Of a stretch of 64,000 bases of DNA, positions 5,171 through 38,058 are shown piece by piece; the first letter of the stretch is position 1; the number at the start of each line of letters is the position of its first letter. Both the position numbers and the translations under genes were made by a program. Under the pieces are notes generated by a model. The model saw nothing but the letters and a program-made list of their open reading frames with translations, was not told the DNA's origin and ran no database searches. Source of the DNA: Nemertoderma westbladi (Eukaryota > Animalia > Xenacoelomorpha); assembly GCA_032718475.1 (NCBI GenBank), contig JAUCBJ010006743.1, positions 1 through 64,000 on the forward strand. The letters run 5' to 3'.

Positions 5171-5314
5171 GTATCTTAATATATTATATATATATATCGC
5201 GTTACATTGAGTAACGATATCGGTAATTAATTATTAGGCTTACAGTTGATACTGAATTACTAGATCTGCTTTAACTATCGTTATAATAGTAAGCATTCAA
5301 CTGTATAAACAAAC

Positions 5315-6748: not shown

Positions 6749-7149
6749 TTTAGTTTAGTTTATTGTTATTTATAGGAAAATGTTATAATTAGAACCATCA
6801 CCAAATTTAGTTGTAATGGAATAAAAAGAAAATGTGTATGCAGTGTGCGAGGCGGTGGGTTGGTAAGGGTTGCAGCAATAGCCAGGCTAGTCGAGGCTGC
6901 CAACTGACCAAGGGTAAATGTACTGTATATATAACTAAGTATTATATATTTGAAAAAAGATAAAATAAGAACTGTTATAAACCTTTAATAATTGTTGATC
7001 AGGATCACAAGGAAATATAATAATTTAATTAACCATTTTACAATACACTGTAGTGAAGAAACAGTCCAGCCGCAGTGTATGTGAGTAGGAAATATAATAA
7101 GATAGAGCCAGACATATAGGGAGATATTGTGTAATGTATTATTATGACG

Positions 7150-11064: not shown

Positions 11065-14000
11065 GGATTTACATCATCTGATGAAGGTGATACAATAGAT
11101 CCTGAAGGCGGAGGAAATAGATCTCGTTCCAGCCGACGTAGAAGAACGCCCCACCACCAGAAATTGCCTAATTTACCCCCGCTGTGAGAAGGCAACTAGT
11201 TAGTGTAGACTTAGGTAGCCCAGAACCCACAGACCAAATTATTAGAATAGAAAGACTCCCTACTATAGTAGATGAGCCTGAAATAATTGGGCCTGTGCTC
11301 GAAGCCACCCCTTCGGTGATAGAGACACCTGTACTTCCAGAACCTAACTCTAAATTCCCTTTGCACAGTACTAAGTTACCTGTGCCCAGTAGAATAGCCA
11401 CAGAATCAGTCCCAGTCTTGGACGCCGAGCGAGACATCAATGATTTATCGCCCGTCGTCCCTCGTCTACCCGCTACTATGTTGGCGGCTCCCGCTTCGGC
11501 GGTCGAGTGGGTAGATGAGGGACGGCGGAGAATGGATCTCCTGCTCGGACAATTGGAGGAACAGCGCTTGCGTTCCTCCCAGCAGGTCCGAGAGATGGAA
11601 GGGACTGTTCAACAGTTAAAGGGAACAGTAAGAGAAAGTAGGTTAGAGTTGCAAGAAGTGCAGCAGAGTATCGCATTAGAACGCGATAAATTGGTAAATA
11701 TACAAAGGGGTATAACACCACCCCCTGTAACAATGTGTCAACCTGTTAGGTCTGAAGTATTTTATGTACAAGGTGTGGAGCCTACACGCATCTATACTGC
11801 TAGTGAAGTAGAAACTCCTATAGTAACCCCTATTAAGGATAATTACAAACCTGTTGATAATGATATTCCCTATAGTCCTGATCCTAATCCGAGAAATTTA
11901 TATACCGATAACTCGATATTAAATAAAACGATGGCCCAAGAAAGTTTTACGCGTCAAATGGCTAGAACCGAAGCCCGACAAGCGGTAAAGGTGGGAGAGA
12001 TCGTCAAGTTCAACGGGGATGAGATGAAATGGTTACCTTTTAATGAATATTATAAAGATAACATACAGAGTTCCGTACTATCCCACGGAGAGAAACTAAG
12101 ATTCCTCATCGAGTGCTTAGAAGGACCTCCCAAGTTAATGGCGTTAAAGTTTATTGGACATCCAGAAGGATTAAGACAAGTTTGGGATACACTAAACATC
12201 AGGTATGGTAATAGGACTAACATAGCTAGGTATTTGTATGCGAAACTAGTAGCTCCCCGAAAGTTTCTTAGCAGCGGGAATATAGAATTTTCCGATGAGA
12301 TCCAGGAGATCTGTAGACAATTAGATTGGCTAGGTAAGTCTCATGAATATCAGAGTTCTATGGTTGTTTGAGCCGTGGCCTCTACTTTGCCAAAGTCTCG
12401 TACCAGTGACAGGAGAGAACAGGTAACAAAAACTCCTCCTACGTCTCCTAAGAGAATTCATGGAAGAAAGCCCGAGGAAAGAACAAGTGTGCACAACACT
12501 ACCCAAGGTAAAGTAAGTAACATCAAACCCAAATGTGCATTGTGCGACGGGCCCCATCGTTTAAGTGTATGTGATGAATTCTTAAAGAAATCCCTAAAGG
12601 ATAGACGTGACGTCATGTGGGATAAGCGGTTGTGTTATAATTGTCTCAGACAAGGACACCAACAGAGAACTTGTTACTCAGACGCGAGGTGTGCTAAGTG
12701 CAGCGCAAAACATCATATCTTGCTGCACGCAGAATTTGAAAGAACTATCCCGAGTCAGGTAAGTGAGTCCGAACTACATGTCCAATTCAGTGATGTGAAC
12801 GACACTGACCACAGCTCTGAGATGGAAGGATTTTACACGGACGAATTCTCCGACAAAAACGAATCCTGTTATATGATAAACAAGCGGGGTATCGAGCGCT
12901 TACGTATGAGACTGACACCGAGAATGAAGCTCAACCGACCATTCCAGACAGACAACCATCTTGGAAACTTCCAACGTCAGAATTCGTGAATTCCCAGTAG
13001 TTCAACTGAGAGTCCACGGAAAGGGTAAGAGTTTTATAGTAAACGCCCTCCTGGACTCTGGTAGCACAGGAATATTCATCGACAAGGAACTAGCCGAAGA
13101 CATCTTTGCTGGACAACCCAAGTTCCGAACTAAGTTGAACCTTTCAGGAATTATGCAGGTTTGGAAATCTACAGTAGCTACGGACTACTATGTAGGAGCG
13201 TTGTCCACTCCCCAGGATGAACTAGGAGAACATAGCATAAGGTCAGTAAAAATGGTGGCGATAAAGTACTTTGCTACCAGCCAAGTAGAACCTTACAACT
13301 GGGATGAAGATGATTTTACCCAGCAGCATGATATCCCTAGATTCAACACCGACTACCCAGGGGTGCAAATCTTGATCAGTCAAAATGTGCATAAGGCGCT
13401 TGAGACAGTAGAGAAACGGCCTGCTCGACCGCAACCATTGCTAACCTATGCAGGAAGAACTAGAGTAGGTTGGTACTTCACTAGGACCTTCCCGTAGAAC
13501 ACTCATGGAAAGATTACCTACCGAACAAATACATCAGGTAAGTGAGTGGGAAGAAGAAATCAGTGAGGGAGAGATCACACCTGAGGGAACACCATACTCC
13601 TCAGATAACAACGATATTACTCAATTATTTGACGAGGAAAATACAATAGACCTCCTCACCGAGAGTGAAGTTTGGAGAAACCAAATGCAACTGTGCCATC
13701 TTGTCAATCATGGCTGACAACTTGACTACAACGACGAGCTAAATGAGGTGATAGATCAACACAACGCTAAGATTCGCGATAAACACGCCGTACAATTCTT
13801 TACTCAGCACTATCGGTCGAGGAGGAAAGAGCCAAGCAGATCCAAGAAACGACTACACGTTTTCTTAAAGATCAAGGTAGGTATGAGATTGGTCTGCCAT
13901 TCCGACGGCGAGAACCAAACTTTATCAATAACAGACCTTTAGCGGAGAAGAGAATCGCGCAACTACATCGGCGTCTTACAGCCAATGCTTCAGCTAAAGA

Positions 14001-17000
14001 GATGTATAAGACCCAGCTGAAGAAATTCATTAATAAGGGATACACGGAGCGAGTACCAGAAGAAACACCCGTAACTGAGAGAACGTATTACCTAACACAT
14101 CATTACGTTCCCAAACCCGGTAAACCCAACGAAGTCCGGGTAGTATTTGACGGCTCCGCCCTTTACATGGGCCAATCCCTTAATTCTGAGTTGTTGCCGG
14201 GACCCAACTTACTACAATCCTTGTTGGGAATACTCTTAAGACTACGGCAATATTCTATCGCTTTCGCCTCGGATATAGAAGGTATGTTCTTACAAGTCAA
14301 GGCCCTGGATAGGGATCGAGACAGCTTGCAATTTCTGTGGTGGCCTGAGGGAGACCTCAAACAAAACCGGTGGAGTACTGGATGACCATCCAGGCTTTTG
14401 GGATCATCTCGAGCCCCTTGAACGCTTGTTCAGTAGTGCGTACCACTGCTGATGACAACCGAGACGCCTTCTCTAAAGCGGTTATCGACAACATCTAATG
14501 GGATATATACATGGACGATAATTTAAAGTCCCTCCCATTGGTGGAAGAAGCCATTGATGTTGCCAAGGGAACGGTAGAGTGTTTGAAACGCGGTGGATTT
14601 TGACTAACCAAATTCACAAGTAACTCCCGTGAGTTTCTGGAATCGATCCCGGAAGAAGATCGAGGTGTTAAAGATCTGGACCTTATCAAGGACGATCTTC
14701 CGGAAACCAAGATGCTTGGTTTGAAATGGGACACGGAGAGAGATATCCTGTTTTTCCAGCTAAAACAGCGAGATAATCCAGTTCGAACTAAACGGATTTG
14801 TCTAAGTATCCTGAGCACTATTTCGATCCATTAGGATTTATTAGCCCCGTTATATTGGTTGCTCGGAGTTTAGTACAACAAATGTGGTTTGAAAACCACT
14901 CGTTCGACGATCCACTTAAAGGAGTGGATGAAATGGGAAGATTCTCTACCATCCATCGAGAACTTTTCGATTTCCCGTTCATATTTTGGTCACGTTCTCC
15001 CCACGTATTCCTATCAACTCCATGTGTTTGGAGATGCCAGCGATATGGGAATAGGTATAGTAGCCTACCTGAGGGTTGAAACTCCGGATGGAATTAAAGT
15101 GGCCTTGGTCACCTCTAAGGCCTTGATAAACAACAAACTACGAGTTCCTCGAGCGGAGTTAAAGGCGGCTCTATACGCTACAGCCATCGGCCGGAATGTA
15201 ACAGAACAGATCGACTATCCACTGGAGAGAAAACTGTCTATTGGACTGATGCTTTACTCGTTTTGGAGTATATAACAAATGAAGTCTGTCAGTTCAGCAT
15301 CTTTGTTACCAACAGAGTAGACATTATACTTAGTCGCACTAATGTAGATCAATGGAGACATTGCCTTGGGACGATTAATCCAGCCGACATTGCCTCCAGA
15401 GGAGCAACTCCTCAAGAACTGATAGATACTCCGGACTGGTTAGGTGGACCCGACTTCCTAAGTAAAGAAGAAGATGAATGGCCTCCTCATCTTACCATGG
15501 CTGAGATTAGACAAGCCAAGGGAGCGGAGAAAGTCAAACCTAAAACCCGGACGAGTAAATCAAAGTTATTTAAACCCGTGATAGATCTGTCTGTACTACA
15601 CATTTCCGGGGACGACGCTATGGATCTAAACTTCCCCGCCACAAATAAATCTGTTGTGGAGATTAGAGAGAGAGACTGGAAATCTGGAACACCAGATGTC
15701 TCGCAGGGACTCTCACCTCTCCTGCAGAGAGCGATAAATCACTATAGCTCCTGGAATCGGCTTTGTAAGGCCGTCGGGTATTTGAAGCGATGCTACCCAA
15801 GGAGGTGAGGTCTCTATAGGGGTGGCATCAACAGGCGGTGGCGGACTCGTGAGGGTCTGGGGGCACGTTAAATCGCTTCTATAGTGCAAGGGAGTTACTG
15901 AAGGCCCTCGTGTCTAGCGAACCATGAATCAACATGGTGCCGTGGTACCGTCTAGTCGGCCTGTTGCCGTACTGCTAGTCCTGTACACAGTAGGGGTGGT
16001 GGATTAGTGTGATCTGTGGTTTATGTGGTGAATGTGGTAGGTCTATGTTTGGTATGTATGAGTTGACCAGACTCTTTACTGTCTCCAATCGGCTGCTGAA
16101 ACGTGTCTTTTCCCAGGGTAGCACTATTGGAATGGAGGTGTTGCATCGGAATGGGCAGGATTCTGATGATTCTGTTGGTACTACTATTGGAATGGAGGTA
16201 GCACCCGGAATATCTGCTGCAAGGAGGGGTTGGTGTTGTAGTGTGGTCCGAGTGAATGATACTCTGGAATCTGCGGTTTGTATGTGGACGATCAGTGGCA
16301 GTTTGCTTGAGCTTTCTGTTGCTGTGGGTACGTGGTATACGTGAGTGTATGTATGGCCACTGTGAGTGAGTATGGGAACCCTTGCCGGTTGGTCCAGACG
16401 CCGCTGGTATTAGTAGGACAATATCTTTACTGCACCCCAGCATACTTTGTGCACACAAAGTTATTTTGCCCTGACGACAAAATAAGGTACTCTCGACTCT
16501 TTGATCAGTCGATACAATTTTGTCCCCTCTGATTTTGTGACCGATTCGTCTTTCCCGATTATGTCCTCTGTGTGTGCATGGTATGTGTCCAATTTTGTGT
16601 TTACCATTGTATACTTGATTTGTGAACATCAGTTGAGTACACGTGTACAGTGACTAGTAAGTGGTTACTTGTTCCTAGCTTTCGAGCTAGTCAGTATTGT
16701 TTGCGGAACCAACTTCCCCTCAATACTGCCGGCGAGGCGGGTGAAAACGTGTCAATATTCCATGTTGGGTAGCGCAAGCCCACTTGGAACAAGACCATCG
16801 GTTTGGCTCAAGGGCGACCTTGATGCTCGATCGACTATCCACTGGTCGACTGGATGCTATCGACTGGTCTACCCGCCGGTTGACTCTCTGAGTTGGCTCA
16901 ATGTACAGTCAGGCCACAGTAAGTTGACAGTAGCCGACCATCTGGCTACACCAACGAGCTGTGCCGGTGTGATCGGGGGATTGAAAATTGAACCCTGGAA

Positions 17001-18683
17001 GCATCGGGCTACCCTCCGGCCCGGTCTGATAAAAACGGAGTCAGACCAGCCCCAATGGTGGTGGGACAGCGTCTGCCTTGTGGGTGCGCCTCGGGGAGGA
17101 GCCCAGAAGGACGCAAGTGTCCATCATCACTACTCCAGGATGAAGATCGCTAGTGATACTCCTCCACTGAAATCTGCGCAGGTCCATGCTATTAAAGATC
17201 TTCCCAAATACAAGGTATCGGAGCGATTTCTGACGGAGAAGATCAGTTACCAGGAGCATGAAGAAACCAATAAGAAGATACTGAGACTCCTACAATGCTA
17301 TGAAGATTCCGATAAGTATTTCCTGTTGTTGAGAAATCCACAGATGCGCTTAAGGGATCGCTTCTCTAGCACAATGATAGATGGGTTAATACGTGTTGGA
17401 GGGAGACTAATTAATGCTCCATTATCCTTTGACACTAAATTTCCCATACTCATTAGAAATCTTGAAATACAAATCAAGATGATTGTAGCTGTTCACAGTA
17501 GGCTTTACCATGCTGGTAGAGAACGAGTTCTTAGCGAAATTCGAACTCGCTATTATTTTCATAAACCCCGTAGAGCTCTGAACCAAGTTCTTAGGAACTG
17601 TATACCCTGTAGGAAAGCATTCAGTAGGCCATTAACACAGCGAGAGGCAGAATTACCTAGGGAACGAGTAAGCTTCTATAAACCACCCTTTACTAATACC
17701 GGTGTGGATTTATTTGGCCCTATTGAAGTATATCGTGCTAGGACTATAGTCAAGCGATGGTGTGTCATCTTTGTCTGTATGACTTGTAGAGCGATCCGTC
17801 TAGATATCAACAGCTTCATATTTACGCCATGTACTTCATGTTTACGCCGACAGATTGCTCGCTTTGGAACTAGCAACACGATGAGATCTGATAAGGGAAC
17901 GAACTTCATTGGCGCCAATAATGAGATCAAGGCTTACGTTAAAGATTGGAACCAAAGACAGCTGGACGATCAGCTAAGGGTAACAGCATCTAGCTGGTTT
18001 TTCTAGCTAGAGGAAGTTGGGAGAGATTAATAAGAAGCGTGAAGACCGCATTTCACTTTATAGTGCCGTGCCGCGCGTATCTCACCGACGAACTTTTGCG
18101 GACGTTAATGGAAGAAATCGCCGCCTATCTTAACGAGAGACCGCTTATGCCAGTCTCATCAAGTCCCGACTCCCTGGAAGAGCTAACACCCGCGCACTTC
18201 CTACTGAAGAAACCTGTAGCCATGCTACCACGATCGGAAATCACGGACGGAGATGAATACTGCCGACAAACTTGGCAACTTATGCAGTTGTTATCCCGTC
18301 GTTTTGCTGACCATTTCGAAAAACATTATCTGCCTACACTACAACTTCGAACCAAGTGGTTTGCGCAGCAAGAAAACGTCAGCGCTGGAGACATGGTTCT
18401 TATTGTGGAATCAGATCTTCCACGTAGACGGTGGCAGACAGGTCGTATCATCGAGACTCATATCTCCGATGATGGTTTAGTGCGATCTGTAGAACTCGTT
18501 GTCATGCGACGTAACTTTAAGAAACCTGGAATTGTATTCGAAACGCAGCAGCTCAATCGCCCAGTTGGTCGTTTATGTTTACTGGAAAGAGACAGAGAAC
18601 TATCTGGAAACTATGGAAGGCAAGATACTCTTCCCACGACCACCTCCCTAATCCTGCAAACATTTAGGGACTCCCCAACGTAG
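11065..18683 (+). pseudogene. element A gag-pol (Gag, aspartic protease, RT, RNase H, integrase), fragmented by stops and frameshifts
   Basis: Gag: FNGDEMKW, CALCDGPH, CYNCLRQGH, CAKCSAKHHILLH. PR: LLDSGS. RT: RVVFDGS, DIEGMFLQV, YMDD (14508-14519). RNase H: FGDAS, NPADIASRG. IN: H-H-CIPC, GVDLFGP, SDKGTNF, LTPAHFL, DGLVRSV. Confidence 0.93.
15793..17138. mobile_element. unidentified ~1.35-kb insertion within element A pol
   Basis: Bel similarity stops after YLKR and resumes at MKIASD. Excising 15793-17138 restores the in-frame sequence AAG CGA TG|G ATG AAG (KRWMK). No recognisable domain inside. Confidence 0.65.
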
Positions 18684-19199
18684 AGTTTGGAGTGGGTGTG
18701 TGACTATATTATTTTATATTTGTTTTTATTATTTTTATATTTATGTATGTACTATTATGTAATTTTATAATAATCGTTTTCTTTAATTTTTTGTAGTAGA
18801 ATGTTATTTTAGCGATTATTTAGTAGAATTAGTGCCATATATATTCGCGTTTATTACTTAATTACTTATATTATATATTTAGTGTAACGGCGAGAAATGA
18901 TTCTTTTTCTCTTTCCTTACTGTCCGTATCATATTATAAATGCGTGACTACAGTAAGATGAAGTATCCATACTTATTAAAGTACAATAAAGCTCCTACTA
19001 TACTCAAGTATTATTGGTAAGTAGAGTATTAGGAATGCAAAGTTCAGATCCTCGTGTCTCGGCTAAACCAAGCTCTGGGTAGACCTTGGAAACGACTTGC
19101 CTCTTCTCACTGACATTGCTTCTTGCAATATTGCTCTCATACCGTATATTAAATAATACATATAGTAGCGTGATGTCCCTTTAACAGTAGCGTAAAAAC

Positions 19200-19610
19200 G
19201 CAAAATAGATCTGTTAAACCCTTTGACCATCTGTAATTCTAGTCGATTAAGATATCGCGGCACCCACCGATATACTTGAAAGACAAAATTCTAGAATCAG
19301 TGGTTAACGTCCCCAGACAAGTTCTGGAATAATTCGGTGCCCATCTTAAATATTAATTATTTAATATTTATAAAAATCTATTAAAACAAATGTTATAATA
19401 GAGTAAATACATACAAATAAACTCTAAAGAGTTTGTAAACCAGGAAGATCTAGAAATCCAAAATCTGTTAAAATTCCAATCCTTTAAAATTCTAGTCGAT
19501 TAAGATATCATAGTACTTACCGATACTCTTAAAAAGACAAATTTCCTAGAATTAAGGATCCCAGTCCCCAGTCATGCTCTGGAATAAAATTGTGTCTATT
19601 TTAATATTAA
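19200..19610. repeat. diverged ~253-bp-period duplication in the pol-ORF3 spacer of element A
   Basis: AATTCTAGTCGATTAAGATATC...GACAAA...CTAGAAT...GTCCCCAG...CTGGAATAA at 19235 and again at 19488. Confidence 0.8.
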
Positions 19611-20412
19611 ATAATAAAATTTACGGGAATAAATTAAATTCATATCCTCTCATGAATTTGATAAATTGTCATTTTATACAATTTATAACATTCCCAAAAT
19701 TCCATTAATTAATAGATCATGGGAGCGGAGATTCACCCTATTAAGTATATTAGCGTGAGAGAATCTCCAAAATATAGTCAATAGCCGATAAAATTCATAA
19801 AATCATATATAAAGGGGAATATTGACAATTAAAGAATTACTATTGAATAGCATCCCAGATCGGTATGCATGAGAATTACCCTAATTCTACTGCTAGCTTT
19901 CCATAATGTCACCATAGCAACAACCACGCTAGAATTAGAAGCGAGTTAAAAGAACAATAGAAAGCTTGCCCCATTGAATAGCATACGGAATAAATAGCAT
20001 ACTGCTAGTATCCATCCAAGGATACATAATAATAACGTGGCATTCTGGAAGGCACTTGACTAACGGACAAATGGCCCGAATGTGTTCAATTTGAGACAGT
20101 TGTGTGGAATTTGTGCGTTTATAGGTGAATGTTGCTACTAAAGTGTGTTTACAGTAGCTAGTCGCAGTTGTGAAAGTAGCCCTACCTCTACAGTAAGAAC
20201 CTGAACTAAATCTAAGCCCTTGGGACGGACAGTGGAGTGACTCACGCTGGTTATTGTTGTCGTTGTGTAGCTACTATGTTGGCGATAGGCACCGCGACAA
20301 CAGTACATCGGCGCTGAGGATCTTGCGCTGTCCGGGGCAGTGAGGGGAAGGCAGCAACGCCCACTAGCCTAATTAAAATTAATTATAATATTGATAAACT
20401 CATATAGCAGCT

Positions 20413-23400
20413 ATGACTGAGTTGATAGAAGATGATCTTGGTATCAGGGAGCGATATACCTTACCGTTGCAAGCGTTTGTTGATAGCTTAATACACGGCG
20501 ACGCTAGTCTAACTACTACGGAGGATGATGGCCGTTATATCGAACCGCCAATGTCCAAGGAACAACTCACGCGTGAATTGGACTATAGAAAATTCACCGC
20601 TTGCTATACGCATTGTAATGGTACTTATATGGACTTCTTAACTACTGGTCATCCTATTGATTTACACGATACGGATGGTGTAGACACCGAAAGGGAAATG
20701 GTTCTATTTAAATATCATACCCAGCGGAGTCGGAACGACAAACCGAGAATCGAACATAAGAATTATATTCGAAACCGACTCGAAAGAGAAGACGTTGAAG
20801 AGCCGGATAAACGCAGCGACTTCAACGAATATCTGGAATTCTTGAGAGAAACATATCTCAATATTGCCAGTCAACAAAATCTAGAAACTCGATATCCTCA
20901 AGGTATACATCATGACCCTATGATAGAATTCAAACGGCTCTATTTCACTATGATGTATCTTACCGTCGATCGACCGCTACCTGTTGTCCCAGATAGTTTC
21001 GAACAGATGGAGGAATATTGTAAAACTGGAGAACGATCACCCGCGTTTCCCCTACAGGACGTGCGTCTTTGGTATTATTGCGATGAATGCCCTAGACCCA
21101 ACCAACAAACTGAAAGACATAAACACCCGTGGAGACGTTGCGCTAAACACAGTTTTACTCGCTATACTTACGGGAGTTTCGAGCAAAACTTGTTCAACGT
21201 ATCACCTACGCTCGCTCGACTCAAACGTTCCTTAAATAAACCCATGATCGGAGTTCCGGAATACTCGGTCAGGCCTCTTCATTCCCTAGTGAGACCCCAA
21301 ACTCTTGATCCTAATAGTATCACGGATCCTCCCGAACTGTACTCACTGTTCAAAGATTTGGTGTTACCCGAACAATTAATCGGTGGCACCCCAGTAGTGG
21401 GCTCTCTAGATATTCGCCCATCGTACCTATCCGGATTGGGACGCGGACATCTAATATCGCCATTCAACCCATACAATCGTCTCAGTTTAACCCCGATACA
21501 ACCCGTCACTGAAGTTGAGGAGGGCGTTGTACGAAATGCGTTAGACGCTATTTGGCAGAAGATCGGAAAGGGAACCTACGATTGTTTAGAGAAACGCCGA
21601 TTGCAGCAACAAGTCCAAGCGGTGAAGGAGTTGGCCTTACCCCAGTTTGATCGAGAAATCCAGAACCTCGAGGAAGACATCGAACTTGTACGAACCTATT
21701 CTCTACAAGAGTTTTTAGACAAACGCTTACAACGACAAGTGGAGGAAAATCAGCTCAAGGAGAAACACATCGAAATGGATGAGAGAGAAGTAGCAGCTTT
21801 AGCCCAACCAGAAGCTCAAATCCTTATGACTGATCTCTATTCCAAAACCATCATTCAACCCTCGATGGTTCCCCATTTCGGAGACAAACTCTTCGCAACG
21901 GTACAACCCCAACCGGTTGATATCAACCTGAGATCTCAAGATCTTATTGCTGACGCTCCTATGTTACAGCGTCCGCCAATCGAGGCCGCTCGTGTCGACG
22001 GTATACTCGTTGAACCTCCGGACAATCGAGCGGATCTTGTCCGTCGTATGGTACACGAAGTCAACATACGCGCTAGACCTTTACCGAACTCGTTTTATGG
22101 GATCAAAGACCACCCTTATTATGTCAATCTAACACAATATTATATGGTAAAACCGGAAGATCCGACACATAGTCTAAAGTTTCTACCTCTAATAAATCCT
22201 CTCGATCTTGTTGAACTCGAACAATTGCAGAAACATCTGGATCAGTTAGTGAAAGTAAACTCATTCAGAAAACCCTACAATGTTTCCAGAATAGAGAAGG
22301 ATATGACGCCTCCGTATAATCTCGATGGATTTATCAAAACTCGATTAGTCCATTGGAATCTCGGCGTATTATTCGAGGAAGAGAGAATACAAAGATATGG
22401 AGATGTAGAGACGTATACTACACAGTATCTGAAGTATAGGGATCTCCCTAACGCTAGCGAATGCGCCACCTTGTGGCATCCGGTCGGGATGACCCTAGAG
22501 AACGCCACTAAAGAGTGGAACGAAACTCTTAACGTTATCGAAATGTATGGAGTTGTCACTTATGATAACAAAGGTAGTGTTCCGGTCGGAGAACTGGGAA
22601 CTACGCGCATGATACATATACGAGGACTAGCTGGTTCTACCCACGTGTTTACTCGAGCGTGTTTTGATGTGATTGATTATTCTTTTGAGACTCTCACCGA
22701 GATACAAAAGAAACTCCGACATAGACAATTCGAACTCGCGCAGCGTTACGTCACGGATACTGAGCATAAACCGGCCATGGGTATAGATGGATCGATGTTA
22801 CCCCAGCCAGTGCTTGAGATGTTGTTTATTGAAAGAATCCTTAAAATCGGCTCAGCTGTTTATGGAGATCTCCAAAACGACTTCAGGAACATGGAGAATA
22901 TTCCATATCCTTTCGTAGACACCCAGCTGATTGCTCCCTGGGCAGAAGGGCAAGGTTTCTTCCGAACTATGTATGCCAATACACCCAGCGGCATAAATAA
23001 AGTACAACGAACCTCCATCGGACATCTTGCCTTCCAAGAATACGGATGGAATTTCAAAGTAGGAAACCCTATCAACTATCAACAAGTATATGGAGATCAT
23101 TATTCTCGATTATACTTCGACGGACCATTGACCGCACCTGGCGTCGTGTATAGCTTCATGAGTAGACTTCATGAGGTTCCCCTTTGCCCCTCATTAGCTA
23201 TATACACTATCCTCGAGAACGCCGCACTTGCCGGTTGGATAGCTGATGAGTGCAGTCGTACTATACGCGCCTATCCCTTGATACTTGGAACCAAGCTCGC
23301 CAAGCTAGATGGACACAATAAATTCATCCGCTTCGAATGCTTTAGGCACTTTCTGACTCCATTCCGTAACGTTGATAGTCAGTTCAAGGACCGCGCTCTG

Positions 23401-23631
23401 ACCAAGCTCAGCCTAAGAGACTCAGCTGCTGAGAAGTTAGACAGTGCTGGATTCACCATTTTCAAAGACGTGTGTATACAGAACTTACATTCCTCTGTTA
23501 TACAAAGACCTCGAATCCCCACGGGTTATTCTATTGTGGAAGTTCAGACACTGGGTTTGCTTGAGGAGACAGCTACACCTATCTCCGCTATGCAATTGGA
23601 AGACGAACCAAAATGCTTACAATCCGATTAG
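20413..23631 (+). CDS. element A accessory ORF3 (1072 aa): unknown N-terminus plus DEDDy-like 3'-5' exonuclease domain; frame continues past the TAG into a zinc-knuckle-like motif
   Basis: GVVTYDNKG (ExoI, E>K), LPQPVLEML...KIGSAVYGD (ExoII), FVDTQ and IYTILEN (ExoIII-like) align colinearly with element B ORF3. In-frame CRLCASQDH follows the stop codon. Confidence 0.72.
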   Translation: MTELIEDDLGIRERYTLPLQAFVDSLIHGDASLTTTEDDGRYIEPPMSKEQLTRELDYRKFTACYTHCNGTYMDFLTTGHPIDLHDTDGVDTEREMVLFKYHTQRSRNDKPRIEHKNYIRNRLEREDVEEPDKRSDFNEYLEFLRETYLNIASQQNLETRYPQGIHHDPMIEFKRLYFTMMYLTVDRPLPVVPDSFEQMEEYCKTGERSPAFPLQDVRLWYYCDECPRPNQQTERHKHPWRRCAKHSFTRYTYGSFEQNLFNVSPTLARLKRSLNKPMIGVPEYSVRPLHSLVRPQTLDPNSITDPPELYSLFKDLVLPEQLIGGTPVVGSLDIRPSYLSGLGRGHLISPFNPYNRLSLTPIQPVTEVEEGVVRNALDAIWQKIGKGTYDCLEKRRLQQQVQAVKELALPQFDREIQNLEEDIELVRTYSLQEFLDKRLQRQVEENQLKEKHIEMDEREVAALAQPEAQILMTDLYSKTIIQPSMVPHFGDKLFATVQPQPVDINLRSQDLIADAPMLQRPPIEAARVDGILVEPPDNRADLVRRMVHEVNIRARPLPNSFYGIKDHPYYVNLTQYYMVKPEDPTHSLKFLPLINPLDLVELEQLQKHLDQLVKVNSFRKPYNVSRIEKDMTPPYNLDGFIKTRLVHWNLGVLFEEERIQRYGDVETYTTQYLKYRDLPNASECATLWHPVGMTLENATKEWNETLNVIEMYGVVTYDNKGSVPVGELGTTRMIHIRGLAGSTHVFTRACFDVIDYSFETLTEIQKKLRHRQFELAQRYVTDTEHKPAMGIDGSMLPQPVLEMLFIERILKIGSAVYGDLQNDFRNMENIPYPFVDTQLIAPWAEGQGFFRTMYANTPSGINKVQRTSIGHLAFQEYGWNFKVGNPINYQQVYGDHYSRLYFDGPLTAPGVVYSFMSRLHEVPLCPSLAIYTILENAALAGWIADECSRTIRAYPLILGTKLAKLDGHNKFIRFECFRHFLTPFRNVDSQFKDRALTKLSLRDSAAEKLDSAGFTIFKDVCIQNLHSSVIQRPRIPTGYSIVEVQTLGLLEETATPISAMQLEDEPKCLQSD

Positions 23632-23813
23632 ATTCAGCCCACAGCGCCCCGGAGCAGTGACAACGACTACGTTTTGGAATGGTATCAAGGTCCACAATGT
23701 CTTACTGCGTATGATTATCGACATGCCAATTATGTCTCCAGGAAACGTTGTCGATTGTGCGCATCTCAAGACCATTTCACCCCGGTGGACTCCAACGTAC
23801 CCTGCTCCTACTT

Positions 23814-24350
23814 TGTGACGGGATCCAGGAGGGATCCCGATTTATCCGATGTGGTATTTAGTCCACGCGTCCCCGCCGTGTATAAGAGTGAAATAAAGAT
23901 AACTGAGTTCTGAAGTTCGGTGTATAATAAGAGGTTATAGGATATAGATATATTGTGAATGTGTACAAGGCGGGATACGGTAACTAAAGTCCCGTGATCC
24001 CCTAACTAAACTAATTGGCTGTACCCTACGCTAGCACTGCTGCACTGAGATAACTGAATCACTGATTAATAGGTTATTGGTTATATTGCACGGTGGCCTT
24101 ACTGCTACTCAATCGATGCCATTCCCCCCTCTGATTGGTTAATACCCTTGTTGGCGCCCCGTGGAGTATTCCCGTTCACTCCACCTGTTCTCTCTGGGTT
24201 AGGGGTTTGGCCCCTGACCCTCTATTGTGTGCTTCCTTCCCACTCTTATTGGGATGGCACGAGTTGGTTAATTGCCCAATCTCGTGGCTCCCAATATTGC
24301 TTATCGGCTAATAACTTTATGGGGTGTTGGCGGGATTGAATAAGCTAACA
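23814..24350 (-). repeat. 3' LTR of element B (537 bp)
   Basis: TGTGACGGGATCC...TAAGCTAACA; direct repeat of 37521-38058 with 5 differences seen (4 substitutions, 1 indel). Confidence 0.96.
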
Positions 24351-24359
24351 CTCCCCCCC
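24351..24359 (-). promoter_or_regulatory. polypurine tract of element B
   Basis: Minus-strand GGGGGGGAG immediately precedes TGTTAGC of the 3' LTR. Confidence 0.85.
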
Positions 24360-25059: not shown

Positions 25060-27594
25060 TTATCTGTACCTCCTCACGTCCTCCTCCCTGGCCCGTTTCT
25101 TGGTTATCACCGCTCCTCTGGCATCATCCGCTTTCTGCTTCCGGACCTTTGCCGCCACTTCCTTGCTGATCCCGGTCGTCGGCTCCTTGGGCGCTGGTGT
25201 TATTAAAGCCCGATACCGCTTCGCCGGTGGCCCCTCAGAATGGCCTGGTTGTTTCCCTCGTGTGGCGTCCCATAGGATCATCTTCATTGCCTTTGGTACG
25301 TGTTCCGCCAAGAAATCCCTAAACTCCCTCCGGTTCTCTGGTGTCCACCTGTCCAGGTACCGTTGCGTGTTCATAACTCCGGCGAACGATGCCGCCGTAG
25401 CTACCTCTTGATAGGTAAACGGTAACCTTCGCTTTATGATTTCCATGTGGGTCTCCTGGTTTATGAGGAAGAAACCCCACTTGAACTCTTGGGCCTTCAT
25501 GCGCTGGCGCATCATGGCCCCGACGTCGGCCCACTCCTCGAACCTCGTGAACTTCTCCTCGTCACTCATCCAGTCGCACTCGCGCCCGTAGTGTCCCCGA
25601 AAGTGGCACTTTGGACATCGGTTATGCAACCGTGGACACGCCCCCATCCTGTGACTTGGTTCTCTACAATAGAGACAAAAGGTTCCCCGTTGGAACCGGT
25701 ATAGGCAGCTGCTTTCCTGATGGGTCTGTCTCCCACAGTAGTCGCAGCCGAGTACCAATGTCTCGCGTCCCACCTCGTCCTTCGTCCCAAGCGATCTCCG
25801 CGGTCTATGGAGTCGCTGGTAGGCAAACTTCTCCACGTTGCTCTCCCTGTTTACGTCGATCTCTCCGCCCCTCTCGGGCATCGTCTCCCCGAATACTATC
25901 CGTGGTGCCGTCCCCGGTTGCTCGCCCAACCTGATGGTGCTCCCCGCGAAATCCATCGCCGGCCCCTCGTGCACACAGGTCCGCTTGCCGGATCTGTTCC
26001 AGAAGGCCCTCGCCCCACTGGCCGTCACCACCCTTCCGCCAACCCAGTCCGTGTCCGAGTGGCCTATCCTTTCGATGGGCGGCATCTCTCCGAACTCGTC
26101 GTCGTCGTCCTCCTCTTCTGGTAGTGTCTCCAATCCCGGTATCCCGATGGATCCACTATGTCCCTTCCCGCCTTGGCTCTCGCCCGTAGCTCTCCATCCC
26201 TCTAGCTCCCTTAACTTCCTTGGCGGTTGGTCGCCCTCGGCGCCCGCTGGTATGGGCATCGCGTGCAACCCCGACGTCGACTGTTTCGGCGATCCCACCG
26301 TCCATCCCAATTCTCGCCCTAGAGACTCCCCCGAACTCCCCGACGAAGTCCAATGAAGTTCGTCTAGGCCCGCCTGTTCCTCGAAGCCGTAACTCTGTGC
26401 CCTGGCCTCCTCTTCCCTCTCCTCTGCTTCTATCCTCTCCCGTCTAGCGACTTCTTCCAGTCGCTTTGCTTCCCGTCTATCCATCTCTAGCTGCTCCCAT
26501 CTCTGATACGGTGTATCCGTCTCCCCATCTACCAGATGTCGGCTGTTGTAGTACACCGACTCGCCCTTCAGCCCCGGGTGGTCTACCAGACCGTCAAAGG
26601 CCGTCTTAAAGGCTCTCCTGTAGCTTAGGGGTGATCCCGATAACAGAAATGCCCCTGGTTCTCTTTCGATAACTACGGTCATGAATAAGTTAAGTAAACT
26701 TATCATCATCCAGTCCTCCTGCAGGATATATCGCTTCTGATATACCTTTATCGCTCCTCTGCGAAACTGATATACCTCCTGCTTTCCCGGTCTCGCTCCC
26801 CACTTCAGCGAGTTCGCTAGTTCTGCTCCGTATTCTTCCCTAAACTTCCCCCAATCCATTGGTTTGTGGCATACGAGCCCCAATAATTGGCCCATCGCCA
26901 CCGCCCCGCATTGGCCTGAGTTCTCGACCACCCCCAATCCATCCGGTGCCGTCATAGCCATAAAGACTTTCTGCATATCCAGGAGGTTGGTGGCGTCCGG
27001 ACCGATGATCCTCTCCGCGTCCTCGCGAATCGCCGATCCCACTTTCGTCGTCGACTTCTCTCTTACTAAGACCTGTACCGCTTTCGGCAGTCGGTCTAAT
27101 TTCGGCCCGTCCTTCTTCCCATACGTCCCTAGGTCGAATAAGAAGATGTCCCCATTTGGCGCTGCCAAATGCAAGAGTATGGTCCTGGCCGACCCTGCCG
27201 TTCCTCGTCTCGAACCCGCTTCGTCTTCCACGGTTCCCTCGTCATCTAGGATCATATATCCTCCTCTGTTGACGGACTCTATGAATCTTTTCCAGTCCTT
27301 CCTCGGCGATTCCCTCGGATACTTCGGAATCCCGAACTTCGCCTCGTCTCCTTTCACCACGTAGTGGAAGTGTTGGAAGATCGCGTTGTCCAGCGACGGC
27401 GTCCCGTAGGTCCCGACCAACCGCTGTTCGTGCGCCTCCCGGAAGTGATCCTGCAGCGCTCGTGCCGCGTGACCCCTTTCCAACCTCTCGTAGTATCCTC
27501 TCGTCTTCTCCTCCGGGTGTCTTTCGGTGAAATCCACCAATATTTCTTTTCCTCCTGACTCCGCCTTTCTCTTCCTGATCAGCTTACTCGCCAT
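25060..27594 (-). CDS. element B accessory ORF3 (844 aa from first ATG): DEDDy-like 3'-5' exonuclease, acidic/coiled linker, three CCHC zinc knuckles
   Basis: Exonuclease motifs: YMILDDEG (ExoI DxE), LLHLAAPNGDIFLFDL, LPKAVQVLV...KVGSAIRED (ExoII), NLLDMQ, QKRYILQED (ExoIII-like). Knuckles: CDYCGRQTHQESSC, CLYCREPSHRMGAC, CPKCHFRGHYGREC. Basic N- and C-terminal NLS-like patches. Confidence 0.85.
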   Translation of the reverse strand: MASKLIRKRKAESGGKEILVDFTERHPEEKTRGYYERLERGHAARALQDHFREAHEQRLVGTYGTPSLDNAIFQHFHYVVKGDEAKFGIPKYPRESPRKDWKRFIESVNRGGYMILDDEGTVEDEAGSRRGTAGSARTILLHLAAPNGDIFLFDLGTYGKKDGPKLDRLPKAVQVLVREKSTTKVGSAIREDAERIIGPDATNLLDMQKVFMAMTAPDGLGVVENSGQCGAVAMGQLLGLVCHKPMDWGKFREEYGAELANSLKWGARPGKQEVYQFRRGAIKVYQKRYILQEDWMMISLLNLFMTVVIEREPGAFLLSGSPLSYRRAFKTAFDGLVDHPGLKGESVYYNSRHLVDGETDTPYQRWEQLEMDRREAKRLEEVARRERIEAEEREEEARAQSYGFEEQAGLDELHWTSSGSSGESLGRELGWTVGSPKQSTSGLHAMPIPAGAEGDQPPRKLRELEGWRATGESQGGKGHSGSIGIPGLETLPEEEDDDDEFGEMPPIERIGHSDTDWVGGRVVTASGARAFWNRSGKRTCVHEGPAMDFAGSTIRLGEQPGTAPRIVFGETMPERGGEIDVNRESNVEKFAYQRLHRPRRSLGTKDEVGRETLVLGCDYCGRQTHQESSCLYRFQRGTFCLYCREPSHRMGACPRLHNRCPKCHFRGHYGRECDWMSDEEKFTRFEEWADVGAMMRQRMKAQEFKWGFFLINQETHMEIIKRRLPFTYQEVATAASFAGVMNTQRYLDRWTPENRREFRDFLAEHVPKAMKMILWDATRGKQPGHSEGPPAKRYRALITPAPKEPTTGISKEVAAKVRKQKADDARGAVITKKRAREEDVRRYR

Positions 27595-28913: not shown

Positions 28914-31900
28914 CTAAGGTGCTCCTTCTAAGAGACAGCATTTACCTACCGCTCTCCTGTAGGTTTTTATGTCCTTTGCACCTATCTTTCCACCTATCCG
29001 CACTTCCACCGATCGGACTCTTCCGTCCTCGTCGGAGTAGGTGCCTACAACTCTCGCCAACCGCCACTGGTTGTTGATAATAGTATCATCCGTGACGATT
29101 ACGAGATCTCCCTCTCTTAACTCCCTGTTCGGTTTCCTCCACTTGCTTCGCTTATGGAGTGTGGGTAGGTATTCCTCTACCCACCTTCTCCAATACTCTG
29201 CGCTAATTGCTTTAGCTACTTTCCAACTTTGGCGGGAGTGTATATCATCTGGGTCTACACCCCGCATATCGATGGTAGCTGGCCTTTCCATCAGGAAATG
29301 GCTAGGCGTCAACACGTCTAATGACTCAGGGTCATCATTCTCCGGGTATAGCGGTCTGCTATTAATGATCCCCTCGCACTTCGCAAGTACTGTCCGTAAG
29401 ACGTCTTCAGTGACCATGTGGGTGTTCATCAGCTTCGTCATTAGACGTTTTGAACTGCCCACGAGTCTCTCGACGCATCCTAACGTATGTGGTGCATACG
29501 GCGTCCTTCTCTCCCACTTCACTTGTCGTCTTCTCATGGCCGCTCTGACTTCTTCTCCCTCCAAGATGTCTAAGGCCTCTGCCATCTCACTCTCTGCGCC
29601 CACAAAATTGGTGCCGTTGTCGCTATATATCACCGCGATCGTCCCACCTTTGCGGTCCCTAAACCTTTCTAAGGCGTTAATGAACGCTGATGCGGTTGCA
29701 TCTTGGGCGAGTTCTATCCCTACCGCCCGCGTATTGTTGCATACGAAGATAATGCCGTAACGCTTCTCCGTGTGTCGCATCACTTTGATCTTTATCGGCC
29801 CGAACATGTCCACACCGCAATGCGTAAATGGCGGGTCGTGCTGTCTTACCCTACTCGCCGGTAGTGGCGCCATCTCCTGTACGGCTCGTTCCTTCTTCGC
29901 TCGCCGGCAGGTCTGGCACTGCCCCACTACCGCTTTAACCTTCTTCCTTAGTTGTTTGACCCAATAGGTCCTCCTTATCTCTGTGAGGGTTCGGTTGGTG
30001 CCCCCATGCAGTATCGATTTGTGGGAGTCCCATATGATCTGGTGGACTATAGGCGATCCTGTGGGAATGATGATGGGTTTCGGTGGCACGACTATACTGT
30101 TGTTATATCCCACCCTAGAATTCATTACTAGAATCCCATCCTCGTTGAGTTGTGGCGACAGCGTGATCAACTCGCTATCCCGTCGGAGGTGCTGTTGGTT
30201 ACCGACGCGTTCCACCTCGTCGCCGTAGTTCTTGCGTTGTTCATAGCGGATCACTGCCTTGGCCGCTCCTTCCAGATCTATGGTTGTCCTGGTCTTCTTG
30301 TCCTTGCCGACTCCCGCAAGGAAATTCCCAAAGGCTCTCCAGTACGCCACTAGTTTCTTGGTCTTATACCAACTAGAACTGTAGCTGAGGAGTTTATCCG
30401 TCGGGTTATCGCACAGTTCCCTTCCTGGTTGCACGTCCCTGATCTCCCTCACCATCTGGGAGTATATCTCTTCTCCCTCTGAATCTCCTTCTCCTTCTGA
30501 TACTGGTTCCGAGCCCGGGTCCACCTTCCTCATCGGCGGCCAGGCTTCTCTATCGCTCAGAAATTGTGGCCCATGTTGCCACAATACTTCCTTCTTCAGG
30601 AAAGTGTGGCGTTCCACGCCCCTCGACAGCAAGTCCGCTGGGTTCTCATCTGTTGGGCAGTAGTGCCACCTTTCCAGTTCTGTGCTCGCCCTTATTTCGT
30701 CCACTCTATTCGCGACGAATATCGGGTATCTCGTCTTTTCGTTGTGTAGCCAACCAAGCACTACCATGGAGTCCGTCCAGTAGTGTGTCTCCACTATGTT
30801 GGGAATTGTATCCACTAGGTAGGCTGTGGCTCTAACTCCTAGTCTCGCAGCTGTCAATTCTAACTTGGGAACAGATGCTGAATCTGGCGGCGTTGACTTA
30901 GCTTTGCTAAAGGCTAGTCTGGGCTTGTGAGGCCCCTCTCGTTGTACTAAATAGAGTGCCGCTCCGTATGCCTCTAACGACGCGTCGGAGAACATATGTA
31001 GGTCCAGATTCGTCATGTTCCCGTCCGGGAAATACACTCGCGGCATGTTGTATGTTCCCATCCTCTCCAAGTCTCCTGTCCATTTGCTCCACTGTTTCTT
31101 GATGTCTTCTGGTACCTCTACGTCCCACTCATCCTTCAACTTATATACTCTCTTGAGTATCTGTTTCCCCGTGACTAGTAATGGGGATGCTAGGCCTAAG
31201 GGATCGTATATCCTTGCTATATACGATACGTAACCCCTCTTCGTATGGGTGTCTGCGCCCTCCTGGCTCAGCTGATACTTCAGTTCGTCTGTTTTTCTAT
31301 CCCACACGATTCCCAACGCCTTCTGCTGGGATTCCGTTCTCTTAATCGCCATGTCCTGTCCTTTGGCTGTTGTAGGGTTGTCCATGGTCGATTCTGGTTT
31401 CTTGTCTTCTATTTCCCTGATAAATTCTTCTGAACTGGATTGGAATTTGGTCAGGTTGAAGCCGGATCCTTTCAGGATGTCGCGAACCTCGCGCCCTGTT
31501 TCCAGTATCTCCTCAACCGTATTTCCAGACTCCATGCCGTCGTCTACGTAGAAACCGCGTCTGATCATATCGACGGCCCTACTGCTATATCTATCTTCCT
31601 TGCCCTTTACCGTGTCTCTCACTGCCATAGTCGTCGTAAATGAGGACGACTTGGCCCCCATATTTTGTACTACCATCTTATACGCTGGTATTACCGGCGG
31701 TTCTTCTTCGCCGTTATACCATAAGAAGCGTTGACTGTCACTATCTTCTTCTGTTACTCGGACTTGGTTGAACATGCCTTCTATGTCACACGTGAAGGCG
31801 TGTTTCCCATTCCTAAATCTAAGTAGTACTTCTATGCCCGAATTGTATATGTTTGGGCCCTCTAGTAGGTAATCGTTTAAGCACTTTCCGTCGGTCTTTG

Positions 31901-34900
31901 CCGATGCATCGACTACCATCCTAAGTTTACCTTTCTTTGGGTCTAAAGCTACGTGGAGTGGCAGGTAGTATGTCCTGTCCGTGTTCGGTTCGTCGACCGG
32001 TAACTCCACGGCCCATCCTTTCTCGACGTACTTCTTGATCGTTTTGTGAATGTACTCGTTCTTCTCGGGGCTCCGTTGTAGTGTTTGTTTCAGCTTGCGG
32101 AGTCTCGTGAGTACCATCCCTCTATTATCGGGTAGCGGTATCTTCGGTAGTTTCCATACCATTCCTATTGTATACCGCCCCTCATCACACGTCATCGATT
32201 CCTCCACACTTTGTAGAGCCTGCTTGTCTTCTACCGAGGTCCCGACCCCGGTCTCTTTCAGTCCCTCGAAGTCCTGTCTGAGCAGTCTTTTAAGCTGCTC
32301 CTCTGCTCCCTCGTCACCCATTTCCTGCATTGTTCCCGCGAACATGCATCCTGATGTCTCCGACATCCTGAATGGTATCTTGCTCTTAATTGGACCACTC
32401 AGCGTCCACCCGAATGGCGTTAATATGGCCACCGGGTCGCTCTGCTTGTCTTCGCCGAAGACCGTTTGCATTCTCTCGTGGGCCGTTGGGCAGTCCATGC
32501 CTACTATGATGGATACCTTCCTAACGTCCACGTCTGGGATTGAGAAGTCAATGTTGTCCAGGAATTTGTATTGCTCGACCTCGATGTTGGTTGGCCGCCT
32601 GGCATTGATGTTAATTGACTCTATTACTTGGATGGGGTCGATGGTTGCCCCATAATCGCATCCTGGTGCCACTGCTGCAATTGCGCACCGTCCTGTCCTC
32701 ATCTCTAGGATCTCGTCTTTGCTAGAGATGGTTGTCACCGCCATCCTGCTTGGCCTCGTTCTCAACCCTATTTCTTCGGCTACCCATTCCTCAACTAATG
32801 TGAAGGCAGCTCCACTATCAACCAGCATTAGTGTTGTTACTGATCGATTGCCTTCCCCGATCACTCGTACTGGTACTACTCCAAGTAGCACTGTTCCTCT
32901 CTTCTTCGCCCCTACTGTGCTCGTTGCCATCGTCTGGCCTCTCCTTTGGCCAAACTTGACCGGTTTCTCTTGGCATTCCCTGGCCTTGTGTCCACTCTTC
33001 ACACATCGCGAGCAGATTTTATTGCTCGACGCGTAATCTATCTGGTCTTGCCTCGGTAGCGCCTGCCAGTACCTGCAGTTCATGGTTTTATGAAGCGCAT
33101 TTGCGTGTAACTGGCATTTGCTCTTTGGGTCGTAGCCCTCTTTATACAATGCATTGCGTATCGCAGTCATATTCGTACCAAAGTCCCTACTATTCTTATT
33201 GACTGGGTTTGACCTACTGGACGTACTGGGGTTATGTTTATTCATGTTGTTATTGTTCCCCTGTCCGTCCCTTGATGTTGTCTTATCTTCGTTTGTCTGT
33301 GGACTTGCAGTCCCCTGCGTTGCTGCGTATGGCAATGATTGTCTGAGCCTCGGCAATGCGTTTGATGTATTGTGCTCCGGTTTGGGCCTGTAATGATCTG
33401 TCTTTGGTCCCTTTCCCAGGCTATCTTCACTATAGACTGGGTCCATTATTAGTTCAGCCTCGTAATTTAAGAAGTTTGACATTTCTTCTAAACCTGGTTC
33501 CGCACCCTTCTTGTCTCGGGTGGAGAAAGCGATCTTCCTCCATTTATTGCGCAGCCAACTCGGTAGTGCCTGCGCTATCGTGGTGATGTTATTGGACGCG
33601 TTGAGCTCGTATGGCGCGTCTAGCGTCTTCAGCACGATCAGCGCCTTCTCGACTTTGTTAGCAAACGTCTTAATGCTAACGGGGTTATCCTGTAGGCCAC
33701 CCGATGTTATGCCTCTCAGCGTCTGCCTGATGATCTTGGCCGGGTGCCCGTATTCCCTATCCAGTGCCCGCCATGCTGTCGTGAAGCCGCCCTCTATTCC
33801 CTGATATTGCCTCACGATGTCGTATGCTGGGCCTCCCGTGTACACTTGTAGATACTTTAGGCACTCCGCCTGCGTCAAGTTTTTTGTTAGTATTTCGTTA
33901 CTATACATTCGCCGAAATTGTAAGTATTCTTCCGGCCTGCTCCCATCGAATTTGAACGGTTCCACGGGTGGTAATTCGATCCTCGTTTTCAACGCATCGA
34001 TCAACGTGGCCATCCCCATTGCCTGCGCTTCTAATGGATTCGACGGGTGCTGTATAGTTTCCCCTGTCTGGTGCGGTTCGTCCGTCCTATTTCTTGATCT
34101 TCTCTGACTCGGATATGTCATCAGGGGTAGCGGCCCCCTCCATATGTCTGTATCACACGACCTGTTTCCATCTAGGGGTCTCGTTGTTCTTGTTCCTGTC
34201 GGGGTATATTGTTGATATTGCGATGGGGGAATGTCACCCTGTCCCCCCCCCACTGGTATGTCTGGTACTGGGGTTGATGTTAATATGTTGGGGCCCATAC
34301 ACCTATCCGCAATAATTCCCCCCTCCCCTGGGTATATGTTATGTCCCTGCATGCTGTAGTCATACTGCTGTGCTGGTACCGGTATAGGCCTATCAGCTTC
34401 CGGCCTACTCGCCGGTATGTATTCCGCGACTTCCGGGTTTAATCCCGTTGTCCGCGCTATCCTATCGCCTACATCGCCTCTCTCAGTATGGCCTACGGTA
34501 TGTGCAGTAAGACCTACAGTATGCCCTATAGTCTGCATGTGTTGCTCGGGATCGAAGTTTATTCTTCTCGAATAATCCTCCCCGCGGCTACCGTATTCTC
34601 GATCGGTAGGTATATTCCGCCGGAAAGTTTCTCTTCGACCCCCCTCTCCACTGTTTTCATCTTCGTACCGGTACATCGCGTACCCCTCTCTCGGCGTGTA
34701 ATGCGTCTCACCGGATCGCATCCCTCCGGGGCGACGGCAATCTCCCGGAGTCCGACCCCATTGACTCTCCGTTCTCATCTCGACTATCGACGGCTCGCTG
34801 TCCGTCCTCGCTCTTCTATCGTTTGCGGCGATACTTCTACTACTCTCTTCCTCTCTTCTCCTATCAGTGGAATATTCCCGCTCACGAGATCTCTCGTCGA

Positions 34901-37404: not shown

Positions 37405-37520
37405 CTCGTCTGGTCGGTGGAGTTCGGCTAGCTAGCAGTGTAGTTCTTAGAGTTTAACTGGGGCGGCAGCTCGGATTTAGTTACTGAGTTTAGCTGGGGA
37501 AGCAACACCGTTTTAGTTAC

Positions 37521-38058
37521 TGTGACGGGATCCAGGAGGGATCCCGATTTATCCGATGTGGTATTTAGTCCACGCGTCCCCGCCGTGTATAAGAGTGAAA
37601 TAAAGATAGCTGAGTTCTGAAGTTCGGTGTATAATAAGAGGTTATAAGATATAGATATATTGTGAATGTGTACAAGGCGGGATACGGTAACTAAAGTCCC
37701 GTGATCCCCTATCTAAACTAATTGGCTGTACCCTACGCTAGCACTGCTGCACTGAGATAACTGAATCACTGATTAATAGGTTATTGGTTATATTGCACGG
37801 TGGCCTTACTGCTACTCAATCGATGCCATTCCCCCCTCTGATTGGTTAATACCCTTGTTGGCGCCCCGTGGAGTATTCCCGTTCACTCCACCTGTTCTCT
37901 CTGGGTTAGGGGTTTGGCCCCTGACCCTCTATTGTGTGCTTCCTTCCCACTCTTATTGGGATTGGCACGAGTTGGTTAATTGCCCAATCTCGCGGCTCCC
38001 AATATTGCTTATCGGCTAATAACTTTATGGGGTGTTGGCGGGATTGAATAAGCTAACA
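37521..38058 (-). repeat. 5' LTR of element B (538 bp)
   Basis: Direct repeat of 23814-24350; several CCAAT boxes on the element's sense strand. Confidence 0.96.

Follow-up and report, generated by a model that had tools for sequence, protein, structure and literature searches.

Do two highly diverged retrotransposons lying next to each other in one animal genome both carry a gene for an exonuclease, and is that gene a shared inheritance of their lineage? The question is raised by a window of Nemertoderma westbladi DNA (the whole stretch analysed, 64,000 nucleotides (nt), positions 1 to 64,000 of contig JAUCBJ010006743.1), in which element A (+ strand) and element B (- strand) are arranged tail to tail. 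The content and order of their gag-pol domains identify both as BEL/Pao elements, and in each a third open reading frame (ORF3) follows pol. Both ORF3s are most likely genes for DEDDy exonucleases kept by selection, given their profile matches, the copy-specific nature of the breaks in A and an excess of third-position differences among A copies. An exonuclease ORF3 is already published for other long terminal repeat (LTR) retrotransposons; BEL/Pao is a new host superfamily and architecture for it.

The third genes and their probable exonuclease domain

ORF3 of element A (20413..23631, +) runs from an ATG at 20413 to a TAG stop at 23629-23631 and encodes 1072 amino acids, whereas the longest ORF in 200 shuffles had 191. 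ORF3 of element B (25060..27594, -) is open over 844 amino acids and consists of an exonuclease domain, a coiled and acidic linker, three CCHC knuckles and a basic tail. The original prediction placed both ORFs on the sense strand, 1.3-1.7 kb after pol; the measured distances from pol stop to ORF3 ATG are 1729 nt in A and 1319 nt in B.

The putative RNase D/WRN-type DEDDy domain of A (22480..23277, +) comes after some 690 N-terminal residues that match no family, compared with about 90 residues before the domain of B (26665..27333, -). In A, the motifs are D718 (Exo I), D819 (Exo II) and Y931-x3-E935 (Exo III); in B, they are D117-x-E119, D192 and Y289-x3-E293. Exo II fits K-x(7)-D followed by D-x-Q in both proteins (K811..D819 in A, K184..D192 in B). 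Common to A and B are also a G-S-A in Exo II and the Y-x3-E of Exo III, where the DEDDy consensus has Y-x3-D. The second acidic position of Exo I in A (720, codon 22570-22572) is non-acidic in the window copy, and the active site is read as D-E-D-E in both proteins, with position 720 of A taken from other copies.

Downstream, B has three canonical C-x2-C-x4-H-x4-C knuckles (25576..25746, -) at residues 617, 640 and 660 (span 617-673), which match Pfam zf-CCHC_4 only at E 0.17. In A, the frame behind the TAG at 23629 stays open for 61 codons (23632..23813, +), through a knuckle-like motif, until the LTR of B cuts it at 23814, just as had been described. A separate C-x2-C..H-x-H..C-x2-H cluster in the N-terminal part of A ORF3 (21079-21150, +) is a possible zinc site. 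Neither ORF3 has an envelope-type transmembrane anchor, the best 19-residue hydropathy being 1.32 in A and 1.30 in B, both in the Exo III helix. The HRDC domain of RNase D and Rrp6 proper was not detected with a 21-row bacterial profile, which may miss distant forms (E 0.1 for A, 0.34 for B), and on these values an HRDC-bearing RNase D/Rrp6 architecture was rejected.

Since no relative appeared in any large sequence search, an outside reference profile was used, built from 53 bacterial PF01612-type domains (RNase D, NrnC-like, WRN-like and Pol I) with A and B excluded. This profile matched B over residues 102-215 (6.6 bits, E 2e-4) and A over residues 798-843 (5.6 bits, E 4e-4), while of three control ORFs from the same elements two scored E 0.02 and 0.08 and one was not reported. 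Not one of 1000 block shuffles of either protein reached the score of the real sequence. Comparison by hhalign gave E 0.0012 for A and E 0.005 for B, against 0.34 and 0.76 for controls, and covered B along its whole domain, with Exo I, Exo II, the tryptophan before Exo III and Exo III itself following one another as expected. The A domain had two matches in a set of 18,950 NCBIfam models, both RNase D (E 0.036 and 0.25), and B had none. A joint A and B profile found a single match among 177,635 Protein Data Bank (PDB) sequences, again an RNase D (E 1.8). These weak but concordant matches suggest a DnaQ-like alpha/beta fold for both domains.

When B was folded on 45 bacterial DEDDy rows plus A, the model reached a predicted local distance difference test score (pLDDT) of 76 and a predicted template modelling score of 0.76. 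It matched DEDDy nucleases with Z 11.6-10.6 and a root-mean-square deviation (rmsd) of 3.4-4.2 over 159-187 residues, among them EXD2, Trypanosoma brucei RNase D, Pol I, Exd1, Nibbler and WRN domains with no clear winner; the top Foldseek rows were EXD2.

Other searches were uninformative. Homologue searches with full-length A, full-length B and A residues 640-1010 (shorter proteins) returned no relatives, either single domain gave no match at E<=10 among PDB sequences, PHROGs offered nothing informative, and three viral contig scans returned no match. A phmmer search with B residues 7-375 against 1.84 billion representatives had one match, to a repeat protein over 19 residues, which was rejected. 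Two chance-level rows from one of two plasmid and phage tblastn searches (the other had none) were discounted.

Further copies of A bear on whether its ORF3 is a maintained gene. Contigs from four sequencing runs (X1, X3, X4 and X5) were aligned, five of the seven listed runs holding part of the stretch; X5 carries a different organism label and has pieces with 10-15% other letters, and may represent a second species or mixed material. In X1, 73,972 contigs, most of them 90-99% alike, map to 10900-24400. Coverage reaches 30 of 30 bins in all four runs and does not fall off across pol, the spacer and the start of ORF3, and the continuation at 23632..23813 is likewise covered by contigs of other A copies. 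The predicted tie between the ORF at 20.4-23.8 kb and element A is thus supported within a multi-copy repeat, but not proven: no listed contig spans pol to ORF3, some end loose in the spacer, and summed depth is not copy number.

The two defects of the window copy are specific to it. At position 23629, all aligned depth differs from the window copy (21, 8 and 1 contigs in X1, X3 and X4; X5 does not cover it), which settles the earlier suggestion that the TAG might be a private mutation. At codon 720, nearly all aligned depth differs from the window copy and has an unbroken motif (33, 16, 6 and 3 contigs in X1, X3, X4 and X5). The Exo III glutamate codon of A shows only silent variation among copies. 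Of 39 listed in-frame differences (40 less one in the LTR), 26 are at third positions (p 2e-5); these are the best-supported rows, with 227 more outside the list, and do not amount to an estimate of the ratio of nonsynonymous to synonymous rates. A second listing, limited to rows inside the ORF, has 9 of 16 at third positions.

Internal deletions of A recur at 13617-15341, 15534-18554, 15794-17120 and 20787-23650, several of them in three or four runs, and are non-autonomous subfamilies.

Several observations weigh against reading both ORF3s as exonuclease genes kept by selection. The last of these deletions (20787 joined to 23650, skipping 20788-23649) is abundant and lacks most of ORF3, indicating that the gene is not needed in cis. 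The best shuffles, at 5.4 and 6.0 bits, come close below the real profile scores. When the profile was divided, the WRN-like part did not detect A and was equalled for B by 4 of 1000 shuffles, and the remaining set was equalled by 4 (A) and 6 (B) of 1000. The hhalign probabilities are low (20% for A, 7% for B, controls under 0.3%), and a Pfam scan, which matched nothing at all in A, found no exonuclease in either ORF3. From its single sequence, B folded poorly (pLDDT 32); the better model and its fold matches are partly circular, being driven by the 45 bacterial DEDDy rows, and speak for compatibility only. In A, an insertion of 30 residues precedes Exo II, and the knuckle-like motif (C-x2-C-x4-H-x9-C, 23749-23805) departs from canonical CCHC spacing. 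Finally, MAFFT with the bacterial rows set Exo I and Exo III of A in another register, without the acidic set; in the Exo III column, B aligns to the bacterial rows and A only via B. The register of the original prediction is preferred for A because other copies have the acidic motif intact at codon 720. In that register the outside profile upholds the predicted DEDDy-type domain in both proteins: B ORF3 is very probably such an exonuclease, and A ORF3 only slightly less so.

Relationship between the two genes

That the two ORF3s are homologous had been proposed from five pairs of aligned blocks. All ten blocks are present, at residues 702, 731, 796, 834 and 931 of A (window 22516, 22603, 22798, 22912 and 23203, +) and residues 101, 138, 169, 204 and 289 of B (window 27294, 27183, 27090, 26985 and 26730, -). 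The pairwise match by itself is marginal, however. BLASTP gave E 0.23, and under four matrices 15, 10, 25 and 185 of 300 full-length shuffles reached the real score, 15 being the count for BLOSUM62. For hand-picked domains the counts were 6, 4, 5 and 60 of 1000, and for the domain plus flanks 10 of 1000. Direct hhalign comparison returned a probability of 0.3%, global alignment with free ends showed no signal, and unguided MAFFT of the two domains (23% identity) missed one of the five blocks and recovered the others. Homology of the ORF3s therefore depends on the outside DEDDy profile, the pairwise alignment not being significant on its own.

How the two genes came to resemble each other is a further question. 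On balance, we favour descent of both from one exonuclease lineage borne by retroelements, through inheritance or exchange, because they share their position, their domain order, the G-S-A of Exo II and the glutamate of Exo III.

Two separate acquisitions, either from host DEDDy genes such as EXD2, WRN, Mut-7 and Exd1 or from a pool that several retroelement groups have in common, fall somewhat short of an even chance. In their favour, the bdelloid rotifer elements Juno and Vesta gained DEDDy domains at least twice, in common with Athena elements (PMC5408684). The similarity of A and B is also limited to the conserved core: flanks and the insert between Exo II and Exo III are not alike beyond chance (141, 1414 and 347 of 2000 shuffles), and an extension of the homology into the flanks was rejected on this ground. 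That EXD2 heads the Foldseek rows for the B model would fit a host source as well. Against separate acquisitions, the Exo III change from D to E and the G-S-A are missing from the bacterial rows seen, in a comparison that did not extend to eukaryotic host enzymes.

The original prediction went further, to an old Bel/Pao clade defined by a vertically inherited exonuclease ORF3. Such a single capture at the root of the clade, followed by strict vertical descent to A and B, is possible but doubtful, and stands unproven. It agrees with the same slot after pol, the same order of exonuclease then knuckle, the common G-S-A and Y-x3-E, the lack of HRDC in both, an upstream coiled-coil ORF in both elements and their presence in one genome. 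The core comparison of A with B reaches only z 4.2, however, while the best of the 53 bacterial exonucleases score z 5.0 and 4.9 against the two cores (mean 2.0), and the flanks are unlike. The integrases of A and B are 30-32% identical, lower than the 34-38% of each with an unrelated BEL/Pao-like contig (L002). The architectures also differ strongly in the length that precedes the domain, and only two elements are known: this ORF3 turned up in no third element, and a metagenome scan with B pol yielded a single contig, whose length of 1459 nt is not enough to reveal an ORF3.

Layout of the window and its elements

Element B (23814-38058, -) measures 14.2 kb. Its 3' LTR (23814..24350, -) has TG..CA ends and, read along the - strand, follows a polypurine tract. 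Together with the 5' LTR (37521..38058, -) it forms a pair with 533 identical positions, 4 mismatches and 1 gap over 538, and B is a young copy. Its gag-pol (28914..35255, -) is a single open frame of 2113 amino acids with DUF1759, protease, reverse transcriptase (RT), Peptidase_A17, integrase and DUF5641. Upstream lies a coiled-coil-rich ORF (35131..37431, -) that overlaps gag-pol by 125 nt in a different frame, a possible frameshift site. The spacer between pol and ORF3 contains tandem repeats of 32-34 nt at 28069-28805. B has no TGG-type transfer RNA (tRNA) primer site. The 9 nt directly after its 5' LTR (37512-37520, -) are complementary to LTR positions 364-372, a short match made without a control that possibly resembles a Tf1-like self-priming signature.

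In element A, gag-pol (11172..18683, +) is interrupted by stops and frameshifts. DUF1759, a knuckle, protease, an RT/RNase H region, integrase and DUF5641 are present; Pfam detected DUF1759, protease, integrase and DUF5641, and a tblastn comparison with B the RT/RNase H region. The spacer to ORF3 (18684..20412, +) is AT-rich and contains a direct repeat of 56 nt, with copies at 19235 and 19488. A coiled-coil-rich ORF upstream of gag (5309..6775, +) is probably the counterpart of the upstream ORF of B, by position rather than by a sequence match; between it and gag lies a broken long interspersed nuclear element (about 6900-10950, -; endonuclease 8944-10812, RT 7150-8025). No LTRs of A were found within the window, nor was its 3' end found beyond B.

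Across pol segments, A and B share 30-43% identity, and blastn found nothing between the two elements at E<=0.01, in keeping with the prediction that they lack obvious nucleotide similarity. At their junction, the LTR of B ends the A frame, yet this is not a clean nested insertion. No target-site duplication surrounds B, 23809-23813 differing from 38059-38063; a later rearrangement, by recombination between copies or deletion, or else an assembly join is the likely cause.

Elsewhere in the window are a single-exon RING-finger ORF (41483-42448, -), which we take to resemble ZFPL1 and which, like the BEL/Pao class, speaks for an animal host, and inverted repeats of ~110 nt flanking a 68-nt tandem array at 43875-45999, similar to a miniature inverted-repeat transposable element or foldback element. 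A large satellite array of 36-37 nt units occupies 47000-64000 and yields spurious long open frames.

Proposed function and comparison with known systems

What might such a gene do for its element? We lean slightly towards a non-envelope third gene whose product, a DEDDy core with zinc knuckles, would act as an RNA-binding nuclease that trims the 3' ends of small or U-tailed RNAs in opposition to host silencing. The ORF3 protein would be made from a separate message. Its knuckles would bind RNA, by analogy with Trypanosoma RNase D, and a two-metal site in which Exo III has E instead of D would trim RNA 3' ends. An active RNA 3'-trimming enzyme is fairly probable. Counter-silencing as the main use falls a little short of even odds and is the least certain step. 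Blunting small-RNA or tailing defences may be the simplest gain for a mobile element, as arenaviral ExoN suppresses innate signalling (available part of PMC7968707). The enzyme could alternatively act on the element's own primer, RNA or complementary DNA (cDNA) ends, or in proofreading.

We consider this alternative, in which the exonuclease serves replication by trimming the 3' end of a self-made RNA primer, of genomic RNA or of pre-integration cDNA, or by proofreading reverse transcription of a long genome, to be unlikely. B has no tRNA-type site and does have the 9-nt complementarity to its LTR; its length exceeds the usual 4.2-10 kb (accessible part of PMC3118150), its model fits both RNases and the proofreading domains of polymerases, and 3'-end processing of element RNA was proposed by Rodriguez et al. 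(PMC5408684). The 9-nt match, however, is short, and most LTR elements replicate without a nuclease ORF3. It is quite unlikely that an ancient lineage of long, possibly self-primed BEL/Pao elements kept an active D-E-D-E exonuclease-knuckle protein while pol fell to 30-40% identity, as a dedicated anti-small-RNA enzyme or RT proofreader and a retroelement counterpart of viral ExoN. Decidedly improbable is a module that binds RNA with little or no catalytic activity, in the manner of Exd1 or Egalitarian, and acts as decoy or adaptor, or an A ORF that is no exonuclease: the glutamate that replaces D at Exo III in both proteins, the other MAFFT register for A, the weak scores and the example of WEL1 (an incomplete DEDDy set, proposed as a dominant-negative silencing suppressor and unconfirmed there, in the part of PMC8062710 available) would suit it, but B still has four acidic residues and the tyrosine, the apparent loss in A is copy-specific and its Exo III codon varies silently only.

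Comparable systems are known from cells, mobile elements and viruses. T. brucei RNase D (TbRND) couples a DEDD domain with a C-terminal zinc finger that helps it to bind RNA, and degrades guide RNAs (available part of PMC7797062). It shares the pairing of nuclease and zinc finger with the ORF3s and is one of the highest-ranking structural matches of the B model (PDB 7c42; Z 11.1, rmsd 4.1, 187 residues aligned); as far as that part describes it, TbRND is a cellular enzyme with its finger near the domain, whereas the three knuckles of B lie ~320 residues away. A DEDDy domain with its catalytic residues kept also occurs in some DNA transposons, the Dada elements of Laccaria and Ectocarpus, but there it is inside the transposase (accessible sections of PMC3706591). 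Arenavirus and nidovirus ExoN are likewise captured DEDD nucleases, for which immune suppression and proofreading provide the two functional models considered here; unlike the ORF3s, they belong to the DEDDh subgroup and to separate captures by RNA viruses (PMC7968707, in the same part). Some BEL/Pao elements have an envelope gene as third gene after pol (PMC3118150, sections available), from which the ORF3s of A and B differ in having no segment of transmembrane strength. The word exonuclease does not occur in the main text of that BEL/Pao survey. In the full-text literature no BEL/Pao DEDDy ORF3 was found, only the bdelloid cases; Repbase, subscription journals and supplements were outside this scope, so that a Repbase note could exist.

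The closest parallel is to the bdelloid elements. Juno and Vesta carry a DEDDy ORF3, gained at least twice and common with Athena/Terminon elements (Rodriguez, Kenefick and Arkhipova 2017, PMC5408684), and exchange between retroelements was inferred for these ORFs in the same study; they are also reviewed in PMC6431247 and PMC5718144, in the parts available. Like those of A and B, they are separate sense-strand ORFs after pol, encode RNase D-like DEDDy domains without envelope features and have one acidic D-to-E change. In contrast to A and B, Juno and Vesta are rotifer-specific lineages with GPY/F integrases and a dUTPase, not BEL/Pao, and their motif is DEED rather than D-E-D-E. No CCHC array or 690-residue extension is reported for their ORF3s (PMC5408684).

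With A and B, BEL/Pao would join rotifer gypsy-like and Penelope-like elements as carriers of a nuclease gene in the envelope position. The two elements also add to the evidence for selective maintenance of such a gene, where the bdelloid study found none for ORF3s within genomes. These diverged proteins escape Pfam and very large sequence searches, so similar genes are probably unannotated elsewhere. As an open, young copy with a domain that can be assayed directly, B makes the role of retroelement DEDDy nucleases testable as counter-silencing, end processing or proofreading.

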